Below, one piece after another: positions 4,733-28,226 of a stretch of DNA of 64,000 bases. Each line of letters opens with the position of its first letter. The stretch's first letter is position 1. The stretch is from Naegleria gruberi. Its lineage: Eukaryota. The position numbers and the translations under genes were made by a program. The notes beneath the pieces are model-generated. The model was not told where the DNA came from, did no database searches, and was given only the letters and a program-made list of their open reading frames with translations. Location: NCBI GenBank assembly GCA_000004985.1, contig GG738851.1; one strand, given 5' to 3'.

Positions 4733-5608
4733 ATGCAAATCCAACAACGACACATTGTTGCTGCTGCAGTTACCATCTTTCTCTTGGTGATTGTCTTTTC
4801 TCTAATGCCAAAAGCCACCGATGACAACTCCAAATACAACAATCATCATCAACAACAACCACAAATCTTGAATGCCAAACAATGTCCTCCATGTCCAACA
4901 ACAGCTGTTCAACAACAACAACAACAGACTTTCAAATCAGGTTCTTGTCCACCTGTTCAAGAATGTAAATGTTACTCTCTGACAGATGCCCCACCAACAG
5001 AACATGGTGATGGACAAGTTACAATGGCCACAACATTTGGTAAAGCACTTAACAAACTTGCTAAACAAGATGATGTGAATACAGTATTGGAAATTGGTAC
5101 TTGGTTTGGTGGTGGTTCTACTCAATGTATTGCCAAGGGATTGAAGGAATCAGGCTCTCATAAAAGATTATACACATTGGAATTATACGAACCTGCTTGG
5201 CAATATGCTAGAAAGACCTATTCACACATGCCAATTTACTTTATTTTGGGAGGAACAGTGCCAACTGATAAATATTTGGCACCAGATGAAATTCCACACA
5301 AGGACGATCACTTTAAATTATATTATCAGAGAGATATTGAATTATCAAAGAAGAATATTCCATGGTTGATGCCATTGTGTTTAGCAACTAGATTTGATGC
5401 TGTTTTGATTGATGGTAATGAATATACTGGTTGGGCTGAATATGAAATTGTTAATGATCATTGTAAACCAAAATATTTAATGTTGCATGATGTTGGTACT
5501 TTAAAGACAAATAAGATTGAAAAGGTTATTAAACAAGGTGGAACTGTTTGGGAATTGATAGATGAAGGTCAAGATGCTGCCAGATGGCAAATTTATAAGA
5601 GAAAATAA
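4733..5608 (+). CDS. Type II membrane protein with a class I SAM-methyltransferase-like motif (VLEIGTWFGGGSTQCIAKGL); poly-Q tracts; 291 aa
   Basis: ATG ORF with an N-terminal signal-anchor (VAAAVTIFLLVIVFSL) and a Gln-rich, Cys-containing linker. The motif hhEhGtxxGxST resembles motif I of TylF-type O-methyltransferases. The assignment rests on the motif only. Confidence 0.45.
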   Translation: MQIQQRHIVAAAVTIFLLVIVFSLMPKATDDNSKYNNHHQQQPQILNAKQCPPCPTTAVQQQQQQTFKSGSCPPVQECKCYSLTDAPPTEHGDGQVTMATTFGKALNKLAKQDDVNTVLEIGTWFGGGSTQCIAKGLKESGSHKRLYTLELYEPAWQYARKTYSHMPIYFILGGTVPTDKYLAPDEIPHKDDHFKLYYQRDIELSKKNIPWLMPLCLATRFDAVLIDGNEYTGWAEYEIVNDHCKPKYLMLHDVGTLKTNKIEKVIKQGGTVWELIDEGQDAARWQIYKRK

Positions 5609-5806
5609 TTGATAAAATTATTATGAAATAAATCCAAGAATAATATTAATTATTGACAATGTCTTCTATTAACAATTTTAGGTAATTTTAATTGTGATGT
5701 AGCTGCTTGGATTTCATGGCTAAAATCTGTGAAATAGAAATGTTTCCTTTGTTTAGAGGCAGTTATTTATTTTTTATAGGGACGTCATTTTCAATATGAA
5801 CAAGAA

Positions 5807-5879
5807 GCCCGTCTAGCTCAGTCGGTAGAGCGCAAGGCTCTTAACCTTGTGGTCGTGGGTTCGACCCCCACGGTGGGCG
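5807..5879 (+). tRNA. tRNA-Lys: tRNA-Lys (anticodon CTT)
   Basis: GCCCGTCTAGCTCAGTCGGTAGAGCGCAAGGCTCTTAACCTTGTGGTCGTGGGTTCGACCCCCACGGTGGGCG, 73 nt. The anticodon loop is CTCTTAA and the B-box is GGTTCGACCCC. Confidence 0.9.
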
Positions 5880-5999
5880 TTTCCTTTTGGTTTAATTTTT
5901 TTTTGCTCTATTTTGCAGAGTGATTTTGAATTAATTGAGACAAGGTCCTCAAATCCTGAAAATAAGGTATCTACATAGCTAGAAAAAGCAAGGCTTCTG

Positions 6000-6480
6000 C
6001 TCCGAATACATCAACAAGCTTTTTTCCACTTTAAATGCAACACTCCAAAACGATACAAGTGATGAAGCCCTTGGTCTTCGTACACAACATGATCCAGAAG
6101 CTAGTACATCATTAACACCAGAAGAAGATGAGGATGAACTTGAGGGGGATGAGGAAAACTCTCCAATATCACAACCAACACCTTGGACAAGACCTAGGCA
6201 TCCAAACTATGGAATGAAAACAGTTTCATCTAATAATCCAAATGAAAAACGAAAAAGAAAGCAAAGGTGGCTTCAAGAAATTCGAAAATATCAAAAATCA
6301 ACTTGGAATCTCATTAATCTAACAAGTTACTGCTGAATTATCTGAGAAAGTTCCATACATTAGACAGCATGTTGGTGAAGGTGCAATTCGATGGAGAAAG
6401 GATGCTCTTGCTGCTCTCCAGCAGCAGAAGATTATTTACATGAAGTTTTATCACTCGTGTTGGTTGTTCTTCTTTATTGA
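6000..6480 (+). pseudogene. Histone H3 / CenH3-like remnant (acidic N-tail, alphaN, alpha1, part of alpha2), frameshifted and truncated
   Basis: Frame 1 reads ..EEDEDELEGDEENSP..KRKRKQRWLQEIRKYQKSTWNLINLT (compare H3 [21 protein letters not shown] and CENP-A GWLKEIRKLQKST). After a +1 shift the next frame reads AELSEKVPYIRQHVGEGAIRWRKDALAALQQ (compare DFNWQAQALLALQEA). The next frame reads AAEDYLHEV and then loses the histone fold. There is no intact ORF. Confidence 0.4.
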
Positions 6481-6981
6481 CCACCCGAGTATCTTGTTCA
6501 TTAATAATTTCAATAACTTCTTGTGGGTGAACATTTGGAGAAGTGTTTTCTCTATTGTTGGATGGGGTATTTCTAAGACAAGTAGTTTCGTCTAGATCCA
6601 ATAACTCCATTTCGTATCCTCGGCCTGACTGCAATATTTTCTTGGTTAATAGTAGATCTATTTGTAGGTTGTTCAAGATTTTCATTTCTTCTATTCTCAG
6701 TGCTAATTTTGTTCAAGATTCCCATTTACAACATTATAATTCCATACAATCGGATTTGGAATCTTTAATAACCAGTTGACCTCATTAAACAATATCCAAT
6801 ATATGATTCCAATCAATTCAATTGCACTTCTTTTAAAATAAAACATGTATTATTATTTTAGAACATGACGGAACTTCAATTATTGTACAACATGTTTAAT
6901 GTAAAGTGGCATGGTATTGTTGCTTGTGATATTAATCAGAAAAAACTGCCAATATTTCAGCTATCATCAATTATCATCATT

Positions 6982-8326
6982 ATGATGGAGGTAAAACAAG
7001 AAGGTTGGTATTTTCGAATCGATATTTTCAAAATAATAATAATAATTAATGAATTGAATTGTTAATTAATAGAGAAGGTTATATTTTCGGATGATGTTTG
7101 TTTTGAAATTATTTCCATGATTGATGATTCGTGGTTTATTTTGAATAATTGTTCTTTAATTTCAAAACAATGGTTTAATGTGATCAAGGAACGTTCAAAA
7201 CTTGTTATTCAATTTAAAAAACAATTAACAGAAAAAAGAATTGAATTGTTAATGAAAAGTCAATTCATGAATAGTATTGTAAATGTTAAGTTTTATTATG
7301 GGTTGCTTAACTCTTCAGATAAACTTAAATTCATAAGTGGAATGAAATCATTAACATCACTTAATATTGGTCATAATGAAATTGGTGTAGAAGGAGCCAA
7401 ATTCATAAGTGAAATGAAACATGTAACATCACTTTATATACATTACAATGAAATTGGTGTAGAAGGATCCAAATTTATAAGTGAAATGAAACAATTAACA
7501 TCACTTAATATTGCTGACAATGAAATTGGCGTAGAAGGATCCAAATTCATAAGTGAAATGAAACAATTAACATCACTTAATATTGATTACAATGAAATTG
7601 GTGTAGAAGGAGCCAAATTCATAAGTGAAATGAAACAATTAACATCACTTAATATTGCTCGACAATGAAATTGGCGTAGAAGGATCCAAATTCATAAGTG
7701 AAATGAAACAATTAACATCACTTAATATTGGTGGCAATGAAATTGGTGTAGAAGGAGCCAAATACATGAGTGAAATGAAACATTTAACATCACTTGATAT
7801 ACATCGCAATGAAATTGGTGTAGAAGGATCCAAATTCATAAGTGAAATGAAACATTTAACATCACTTAATATATATTACAATGAAATTGGTGTAGAAGGA
7901 TCCAAATACATAAGTGAAATGAAACATTTAACATCACTTAATATTGGTGATAATGAAATTGGTGTAGAAGGATCCAAATACATAAGTGAAATGAAACAAT
8001 TAACATCACTTAATATTGCTGACAATGAAATTGGCGTAGAAGGATCCAAATTCATAAGTGAAATGAAACATTTAACATCACTTTATATATATTACAATGA
8101 AATTGGTGTAGAAGGAGCCAAATTCATAAGTGAAATGAAACATTTAACATCACTTAATATTTCTGGCAATCAAATTGGTGATGAGGGATCCAAATTCATA
8201 AGTGAAATGAAATCATTAACATCACTTAATATTGGTGATAATGAAATTGGTGTAGAAGGAGCCAAATTCATAAGTGGAATGAAACAATTAACATCACTTA
8301 ATATTGATGACAATGAATTGGTGTAG
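6982..8326 (+). CDS. F-box-like / LRR protein carrying about 13 near-identical 72-bp (24-aa) tandem repeats; contains a 1-nt frameshift (possible pseudogene or assembly error)
   Basis: ORFs 7117..7668 and 7655..8326 are the same repeat array split by one extra C (gctCgacaatg near 7660 versus gctgacaatg in the other units). The N-terminal motif DDVCFEIISMIDDSWFILNNCSLISKQWF lies upstream of the first ATG with no in-frame ATG before it. A mini-exon ATGATGGAG (6982..6990) plus an 81-nt GTAAAA..AATAG intron (6991..7071) would supply the start; that is inference. The repeat unit is NEIGVEGSKFISEMKQLTSLNIxx. Confidence 0.6.
7375..8320 (+). repeat. Tandem array of about 13 copies of a 72-bp coding repeat (over 90 percent identical)
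   Basis: aatgaaattggtgtagaaggatccaaattcataagtgaaatgaaacaattaacatcacttaatatt recurs with a period of 72 nt (7381, 7453, 7525 ...). Confidence 0.9.
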
Positions 8327-8392
8327 AATAAAACGTGAAACTTTATTAATGTCTCTTATATCAATAACAGCCTTGATGACATTTGGTAGGTC

Positions 8393-8432
8393 TCATATCT
8401 TAAGGTCGTGAGTTCGACCCCCATGGTGGGCG
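8393..8432 (+). pseudogene. Orphan tRNA 3'-half fragment, derived from tRNA-Lys(CTT)
   Basis: tcttaaggtcgtgagttcgacccccatggtgggcg matches the 3' half of the tRNA-Lys at 5807 (T-arm plus acceptor 3' strand) with 2 substitutions. No matching 5' half or acceptor strand lies upstream. Confidence 0.5.
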
Positions 8433-8531
8433 ATTCAATTTTTGTTGATCACAATTATCGTAGTGGTTGCTGATGATGAACTTTGTCCTATTATTAGGTT
8501 CACTAAGTCTTTCTAATTATTTAAAAAAAAA

Positions 8532-9884
8532 ATGATGATCAATTACGAATCAGTCTCCAATTCCATCAATTCCTCCCATTCCACAATATTCTCTGATGAT
8601 ATTTGTTATGAAATTCTATCCTATTTCCATGAGGAAAATGATGGAAAATTTATTCTACTAAATTGTTCGTTAATTTCCAAACAGTGGATGATGAATGTGA
8701 AGAAATTCGGAAAGATTTCAATTAATATTCGAAATAGAGTTTCGGATTCATTGATAGAACCAATCAAGAGAAATCAATTTTTGGAATGTTTTGTGAAATT
8801 TGGAATTTATTCGCAAGATTTCAAGTTTCATGAAATAATTAAAATGATGAAGAATTTAAAAAGTCTTTCTATTGGAAATTGTTCTATTGGAGAGGAGGAT
8901 TTGAAATTTATCGGAGAAATGAATCATTTAACTGAACTTGAATTGTGTGAATGTTTGACTGGAGATAAAGATATTAGACCAATTAGTAGAATGTCTCAAT
9001 TGACTAAATTAAATATTAGTAAGAATGCAAAATACCATTTAAGCGATATCTTTGACATGAAGCAATTAAAAATACTAGAAATTGGAGAAAATTTCATAGG
9101 AGATGAACAAGCTGAACTGCTTTCCAATCATTTGAAACAATTGACCATTTTACGAATTAATAACAACTTAATTCATTCTCAAGGTGTTAAACATTTGAGT
9201 AAATTGGATCAATTGACTGAATTAGATTTAAGTGGAAATGCTTTTAATGATACAATTGGCTCTGAAATTGCAAAAATGGAACAATTGAAAACTCTTCACG
9301 TTAACAAACTTGCAAGACATCGAATGGGATCACGGTTGGGTTCACAATTTGGAAACTTATTTCAATTGACCAGTCTTAGTATAAGTAATAATTATATTGG
9401 AGATGAAGGAGCCAACGAAATTAGTAATTTAACACAATTGACTGAATTATATGTACATGGAGCTGAAATTGGATATAGAGGAGCCAGATCATTAAGTGTT
9501 TTACACCAGTTGACCAAACTAGATATCAGTACAAATCATATTGGAGATGAGGGAGTTAGATTATTCAAACAATTATCAAAATTAACAGAACTTGTTGTGT
9601 TTAATAATAGAATTGGAGATGTTGGAGCACAACTTATTAGTGAAATTCCTCAATTGACCTCTCTTGTTGTTAGTAGCAATCAAATTGGAAACGAAGGGGC
9701 AAAATCAATTAGTCAAATGTCAAAATTGAAATATCTTTCGATTAATGGAAATCAAATTGGTGATCAAGGAGCTAAATTATTAAGTGAAATGAATCAATTA
9801 AGAAGAATTGAAGTTTATGGAAATAATATTAGTAATGAGATATTTCAATTATTTGGAATTAAAATTCAAAATAAATTGAAATAA
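8532..9884 (+). CDS. F-box-like / leucine-rich-repeat protein (450 aa)
   Basis: ATG ORF. The N-terminus reads SDDICYEILSYF..LLNCSLISKQW, and LRR units (LTxLxISxNxIGDEGA) fill the rest. Confidence 0.85.
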   Translation: MMINYESVSNSINSSHSTIFSDDICYEILSYFHEENDGKFILLNCSLISKQWMMNVKKFGKISINIRNRVSDSLIEPIKRNQFLECFVKFGIYSQDFKFHEIIKMMKNLKSLSIGNCSIGEEDLKFIGEMNHLTELELCECLTGDKDIRPISRMSQLTKLNISKNAKYHLSDIFDMKQLKILEIGENFIGDEQAELLSNHLKQLTILRINNNLIHSQGVKHLSKLDQLTELDLSGNAFNDTIGSEIAKMEQLKTLHVNKLARHRMGSRLGSQFGNLFQLTSLSISNNYIGDEGANEISNLTQLTELYVHGAEIGYRGARSLSVLHQLTKLDISTNHIGDEGVRLFKQLSKLTELVVFNNRIGDVGAQLISEIPQLTSLVVSSNQIGNEGAKSISQMSKLKYLSINGNQIGDQGAKLLSEMNQLRRIEVYGNNISNEIFQLFGIKIQNKLK

Positions 9885-28151: not shown

Positions 28152-28226
28152 TGCTACCCGCGCGGATCGAACGCACATCTTCTTACTCCCGATAAGCAAG
28201 ACGCCCTACCATTAGACCAGAGCAGC
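28152..28226 (-). tRNA. tRNA-like gene of uncertain identity (possible tRNA-Ile TAT with a 4-nt intron, or a pseudogene)
   Basis: The minus-strand sequence is GCTGCTCTGGTCTAATGGTAGGGCG TCTTG CTTATCGGGAG TAAGA AGAT GTGCGTTCGATCCGCGC GGGTAGCA. The acceptor, D-arm and T-arm are good (B-box GTTCGATCC). The anticodon stem TCTTG/TAAGA encloses 11 nt rather than 7, so either a 4-nt intron or an expanded loop is present. Confidence 0.5.

Follow-up and report, generated by a model that had tools for sequence, protein, structure and literature searches.

A probable pseudogene derived from part of a CenH3-class histone H3 variant gene in Naegleria gruberi

Introduction

Do the remains of a centromeric histone gene lie between a tRNA-Lys gene and an LRR repeat gene of Naegleria gruberi, and if so, from which gene do they derive? 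The question was raised by an earlier reading of a 64,000-nucleotide stretch of contig GG738851.1 (assembly GCA_000004985.1; this whole stretch is called the window throughout, with position 1 as its first letter), in which a decayed histone H3 or CenH3-like gene fragment was proposed at positions 6000–6480. CenH3 proteins differ from H3 in that loop 1 carries an insertion, the alpha1 glutamine is lost, and N-tail and histone fold are both divergent; these sequence criteria were used as restated in PMC7052976. Here, the extent, the reading frames and the lesions of the fragment were determined, the intact gene from which it derives was identified, and the remaining explanations of the locus were weighed.

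Location of the fragment

The homologous block was located at window 5978–6455 on the plus strand, starting slightly 5' of position 6000, where the original prediction had begun it; its features, its lesions and its immediate neighbours are collected in Table 1. Both of the neighbours named in that prediction, tRNA-Lys and the LRR array, are present on either side, and the spacer that holds the fragment between the tRNA-Lys gene and the F-box/LRR gene measures 985 nt. The G+C content lies at 30–37% throughout the window, and six long ORFs of the window correspond exactly to proteins of N. gruberi strain NEG-M in the range EFC48259.1 to EFC48278.1, all of them encoded on one scaffold of 693,645 bp.

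Two ORFs of the fragment region were looked up, one of 40 aa (6214–6336) and one of 115 aa on the minus strand (6338–6685), the latter partly antisense to the histone fragment. Both were absent from the protein collection, which fits the lack of an annotated gene at the fragment, and the fragment is apparently unannotated. The 115-aa ORF gave no Pfam family; at the base composition of the window, about one ORF of 115-codon length is expected by chance (estimate).

Further features were recorded in the surroundings. The downstream LRR gene has a probable GT..AG intron at about 6990–7076, an F-box-like N-terminus (DVCFEIISMIDDSWFILNNCSLISKQWFNVIK) and a long array of ~24-residue repeats (NEIGVEGAKFISEMKQLTSLNI), which is spread over the mechanically called ORFs 7117–7668, 7655–8326 and 8532–9884; this split among several ORFs suggests further introns or frameshifts. 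Seven dispersed tRNA genes were listed on both strands between window positions 2607 and 52967, and for one of them, tRNA-Pro(GGG) at 28152–28226, the anticodon was reported at position 37, as against positions 33–35 in the other six.

Table 1 Coordinates of the fragment, its lesions and its neighbouring genes in the window
Feature	Position	Strand	Basis or remark
tRNA-Lys(CTT) gene, context	5807–5879	+	99 nt 5' of fragment
Whole homologous block, probable pseudogene fragment	5978–6455	+	parent codons 13–205 of 282, L001 5645–6222; blastn, MAFFT, tblastn
Start of N-tail remnant	5978–6019	+	frame of 6002; tblastn 5969–6025, E 0.002
T6 run (parent T7), −1 nt frameshift	6020–6025	+	deletion at L001 5687
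Acidic Ser/Thr/Pro-rich N-tail remnant	6026–6240	+	frame of 6001
−54 nt, in frame	after 6056	+	RDFLNYFSLSEEDHQRS lost
−18 nt, in frame	after 6224	+	RQTSAS lost
alphaN region NEKRKRKQRWLQEIRKYQKSTWNL	6241–6312	+	alignment to parent
−23 nt, frameshift	after 6312	+	IPRASLIR (alpha1 start) lost
Nonsense codon, AAA to TAA, parent Lys159	6320–6322	+	alignment to parent
Remainder of alpha1, extended CenH3-type loop 1, start of alpha2 (QVTAELSEKVPYIRQHVGEGAIRWRKDALAAL)	6323–6418	+	frame of 6002
−4 nt, frameshift	after 6418	+	alignment to parent
Middle of alpha2 (AAEDYLHEVLS)	6419–6455	+	frame of 6001; homology stops at 6455, codon 205
F-box-like/LRR repeat gene, context	6865–9884	+	downstream of fragment; probable ATG 6865; probable intron ~6990–7076, read by eye

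Reading frames and histone match

Translation in the frame of position 6001 gave the acidic tail and NEKRKRKQRWLQEIRKYQKSTWNLI, that in the frame of 6002 gave QVTAELSEKVPYIRQHVGEGAIRWRKDALAAL, and AAEDYLHEVLS was again read from the frame of 6001. The open stretch in the frame of 6001 ends at a stop directly after STLNATLQNDTSDEALGLRTQHDPEASTSLTPEEDEDELEGDEENSPISQPTPWTRPRHPNYGMKTVSSNNPNEKRKRKQRWLQEIRKYQKSTWNLINLTSYC, the frame of 6002 continues the fragment with QVTAELSEKVPYIRQHVGEGAIRWRKDALAALQQ, and the resumed frame of 6001 runs to a stop after AAEDYLHEVLSLVLVVLLY. The peptides quoted in the original prediction (the acidic tail, the H3 alphaN/alpha1-like stretch and the AAEDYL of alpha2) were all recovered in place, and of its 'three frames' the three segments stand, whereas the frames in use are two (6001 and 6002).

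Upon joining of the three segments, the translation passed the Pfam Histone profile PF00125 (E = 4.2e-7; 30.7 bits versus a gathering score of 26.4), and the profile search that had been put forward as a means of disproving H3-family membership gave a significant match; the single frame segments lay below the PF00125 threshold (segment 1, E = 0.074). The best solved-structure match of the joined translation was human CENP-A (9e-10), then Cnp1 and Cse4, with canonical H3 behind. A complete alpha1-L1-alpha2-L2-alpha3 fold is not contained in any one ORF of the fragment, which has three frameshifts and one stop and is devoid of L2 and alpha3, and the copy is predicted from its sequence to be unable to encode a histone fold.

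The intact parent gene

When the joined translation was searched against the database, a single strong match came back, EFC48882.1/XP_002681626.1 (P0001), a 109-aa N. gruberi protein named 'histone H3, partial' that is encoded on another scaffold of 850,158 bp. The 90% cluster of EFC48882.1 includes the full-length protein of 282 aa (P0178), encoded on an ENA assembly contig, and at this locus (L001) the parent gene is an uninterrupted, intronless ORF of 282 codons at 5609–6457. The intact parent, for which a search had been advised, was thereby found. The contig (8.5 kb; ENA ERZ929261, run ERR1078381, project PRJEB11402) is filed as a metagenome, and the parent DNA used here is that of this 'metagenome' contig, not of the NEG-M scaffold.

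At L001, the parent gene is preceded by a SNF2-type helicase gene and followed by an ORF of 370 aa, for which Pfam gave no family, and then by an AAA/Vps4 gene. The SNF2 product is identical in 489 of 489 residues to EFC48881.1, which is numbered adjacent to EFC48882.1 on the NEG-M scaffold, and L001 can therefore be taken to represent the parent locus; the identity between L001 and NEG-M was established at the protein level, in this one neighbouring gene and in 108 of 109 histone residues (P0178 versus P0001). The presence on the contig of a SNF2 product 100% identical to that of NEG-M indicates that the sampled material contains N. gruberi or a near-identical strain. On these protein identities, L001 is assigned as the N. 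gruberi parent locus of the same or a nearly identical strain.

The parent protein (P0178 versus PF00125, E = 1.6e-21) has a 123-aa N-tail and, unusually for a CenH3, a charged C-terminal extension of ~50 aa (NRHSNNAGGKKQASFQERPARKRKDPKRKDLSESVPENSDDSMRDEESS) behind the histone fold. Measured against this 282-aa protein with its long N- and C-terminal extensions, the public model EFC48882.1 (109 aa, 'partial') is an under-call.

Lesions of the copy

In blastn, the sole homology between the window and L001 was that of window 5978–6455 with L001 5645–6222. Identity in this region is 96.2% (460 of 478 aligned nt), and five deletions have removed 100 nt of the parent sequence (MAFFT alignment A2). 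Three of the deletions shift the frame (−1, −23 and −4 nt), where at least two frameshifts had been predicted; beyond these, the fragment has two in-frame deletions (−54 and −18 nt) and one nonsense codon, and both gene ends are lost. The copy lacks about 36 nt of the gene on its 5' side and about 235 nt on its 3' side, and unrelated sequence stands in their place.

Upstream, the similarity of window 5880–5977 to the 5' end of the parent was no better than that of shuffles and the first 12 codons were unrecognisable, so that the start codon is gone. Downstream, window 6456–6864 had no significant similarity, on either strand, to the rest of the parent gene or to any part of L001, and parent residues 205–282 had no match anywhere on either strand of the 64-kb window (tblastn with P0178). 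The remainder of the fold had been described as missing, and the last ~78 codons, which comprise the end of alpha2, L2, alpha3 and the C-tail, are indeed absent. Introns as a rescue of the frame of the copy were considered and rejected, as the homologous segments lie directly next to one another and the parent has no introns.

Short microhomology was seen at some of the deletion junctions in alignment A2, with AAGCGAT/AAGTGAT for the deletion of 54 nt and ATT for that of 23 nt, in keeping with slippage or microhomology-mediated repair. Copy and parent are separated by 18 substitutions, of which 14 are nonsynonymous and 4 synonymous. The dN/dS value of 0.99 (Nei–Gojobori, 155 complete codons) stems from these 18 substitutions only and has to be read with the caveat that CenH3 genes evolve fast anyway; the substitution pattern looks like the neutral expectation for an unconstrained sequence. 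The fragment thus presents the marks of a pseudogene: its lesions are disabling when set against an intact parent, and constraint is relaxed.

CenH3 class of the parent

Relative to H3, loop 1 is longer by 12 residues in parent and fragment alike (SEKV/IPYIRQ..GEGAI; alignment A1), where an insertion of at least 1 residue marks a CenH3. In the column of H3 Gln68 in alpha1 the parent has Ile, i.e. the glutamine is absent; in the fragment, this position falls within the 23-nt deletion. The parent also has Trp at H3 Phe84 and Ser at H3 Thr107 (alignment A1). Its N-tail of 123 aa is acidic, Ser/Thr/Pro-rich and without similarity to the H3 tail, and thus divergent, and the remnant of this tail in the fragment spans window 5978–6240. 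The histone fold is likewise divergent, the parent being ~33% identical to human H3 (alignment A1). The top 13 solved-structure matches of the parent were all Cnp1, Cse4 or CENP-A (56.6–46.1 bits), with H3.3 at 45 bits, and its closest database relatives beyond Naegleria were plant and fungal CenH3. By these sequence features the parent is classed as a CenH3, and the CenH3 pattern recognised earlier, an acidic N-tail joined to a divergent H3 core, is borne out in the parent.

Other Naegleria homologues were not found in a word-indexed protein search with P0001, and relatives above 50% identity were not found in an exhaustive search of representative proteins. When proteins were searched with N. 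lovaniensis P0042, canonical H3 dominated the matches and N. gruberi CENP-A1 was not recovered. In a preprint on N. gruberi (10.64898/2026.08.18.745565), three CENP-A paralogues are given, of which CENP-A1 (XP_002682707.1) is the validated kinetochore histone and two are down-regulated in mitosis or undetectable. The parent is probably not the validated CENP-A1 but a paralogue, one of the two that are not mitotically upregulated.

Compared with EFC48882.1/P0178, the fragment is 96.2% identical at the nucleotide level over codons 13–205, and the acidic N-tail, the alphaN motif KRKRKQRWLQEIRKYQKST and the loop 1 insertion are common to both; it differs in lacking the start codon and the C-terminal third, in its five deletions and one nonsense codon, and in its unrelated context on another scaffold. 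Compared with human CENP-A, S. pombe Cnp1 and S. cerevisiae Cse4, the joined translation and the parent match CenH3 structures before canonical H3, and the longer loop 1, the Trp at H3 Phe84 and the long divergent N-tail are likewise present, but the window fragment would be unable to fold as a histone.

Alternative explanations

Window 5978–6455 is very probably a non-functional gene-fragment pseudogene of the CenH3-class H3 variant gene EFC48882.1/XP_002681626.1; this reading is carried by the homology and the lesions, by the loss of both ends, by the existence of a separate intact parent and by the neutral substitutions. Retention of the fragment for a function, be it as an RNA that regulates the parent CenH3 paralogue or as a short peptide from the 40-aa ORF, is improbable. 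Nothing direct speaks for it; the 96% nt identity to the parent would permit RNA–RNA pairing, and the 115-codon antisense ORF overlaps the fragment. A dN/dS of ~1 and a deletion bias typical of neutral decay argue against such retention, as do the Rfam scan of window 5600–7000, in which the tRNA alone was found, the lack of a Pfam match for the antisense ORF and the absence of both ORFs from the protein collection.

More speculative still is the notion that the fragment yields sense or antisense RNA modulating the CenH3 paralogue, or that its position reflects a tRNA-gene-targeted retroelement cDNA capture. As the fragment lies 99 nt from the tRNA gene, where Pol III or read-through transcription is possible, and is 96% identical to the parent, it could give rise to a modulating RNA. 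In Dictyostelium, some retroelements (TRE elements) target about this distance from tRNA genes. A retroelement signature was not seen near the fragment in window 5807–5978, a search for repeats or transposon signatures around the fragment gave only chance-level short matches, and no other copy or repeat of the fragment region was found within the 64-kb window. If true, tRNA-targeted cDNA capture would be the first hint of such targeting in Naegleria.

It is very unlikely that the locus is an intact, functional CenH3-like gene whose frameshifts and gaps are errors of sequencing or assembly. Frameshifts in short repeats can arise in this way and the −1 deletion does sit in a T-run, but the remaining lesions are deletions of 54, 18, 23 and 4 nt together with a point nonsense codon, and ~36 nt of the 5' and ~235 nt of the 3' part of the gene are swapped for unrelated sequence. 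Because the copy carries 18 substitutions relative to the parent, it does not consist of mis-assembled parent reads; the deletion sizes, the missing ends and these substitutions practically exclude sequencing error. The suggestion of an 'incompletely assembled' gene, offered in the original prediction as a second possibility, found no support, given the same substitutions, the five deletions and the unrelated flanks.

That the fragment is an allele or haplotype that has diverged from the parent locus might be considered for NEG-M, a strain described as tetraploid in 10.64898/2026.08.18.745565, and the aligned part is indeed 96% identical, but there is hardly any prospect of this being the case. 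The fragment neighbours glycosyl transferase, tRNA-Lys and LRR genes, the parent SNF2 helicase and AAA/Vps4 genes, and the flanks are without homology and no more alike than shuffles; with flanking genes so unrelated, an allelic relation is effectively excluded.

A chance or low-complexity likeness to H3/CenH3, in favour of which the compositional bias of the N-tail and the weak Pfam score of each frame segment by itself (segment 1, E = 0.074) could be cited, is ruled out by the tblastn match of the intact N. gruberi protein (P0178) to the window (E = 3.4e-46) and by the 96% nt identity over 478 nt to a specific N. gruberi gene.

Origin and status of the copy

For the pseudogene reading, we infer the mode of copying as follows. 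An internal piece of the intronless parent, codons 13–205 of 282, would have been copied into the spacer between tRNA-Lys and the F-box/LRR gene, either as a DNA or cDNA fragment captured at a break or as part of a larger duplicate that subsequently lost its ends to deletions. Free of constraint, the copy would then have decayed as small deletions, a single nonsense mutation and neutral substitutions built up. Flanking direct repeats that might represent target-site duplications were not found around the fragment. Since the parent is intronless, intron loss is uninformative on a retrocopy origin, and since the 3' end of the copy is missing, a poly(A) tract is not to be expected.

The copy most likely does nothing, and we likewise infer the absence of an RNA-level role. 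Of the two possibilities originally raised, that of a duplicated and decayed CenH3-like gene agrees with the data, i.e. a truncated, frameshifted fragment with a dN/dS of 0.99 and an intact parent elsewhere.

Significance

Gene-fragment pseudogenes are commonplace, and the fragment by itself matters little; it is an ordinary pseudogene that adds a small detail to the known multiplicity of Naegleria CENP-A paralogues. In practical terms, it constitutes a 96%-identical off-target of 478 nt on another scaffold for RNA-seq, ChIP and CRISPR-guide mapping to the EFC48882 paralogue.

Birth-and-death turnover of CenH3 paralogues occurs in other lineages, with Drosophila Cid and the plant CENH3 duplicates as examples. 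The Naegleria case would resemble these in its turnover and differs in two respects: the window copy is an internal fragment only, and a subfunctionalised intact copy plays no part. In N. gruberi, the CenH3/CENP-A-like family with its three reported paralogues has at least one dead fragment copy as well, which agrees with a birth-and-death turnover of centromeric histone genes in the Naegleria lineage.
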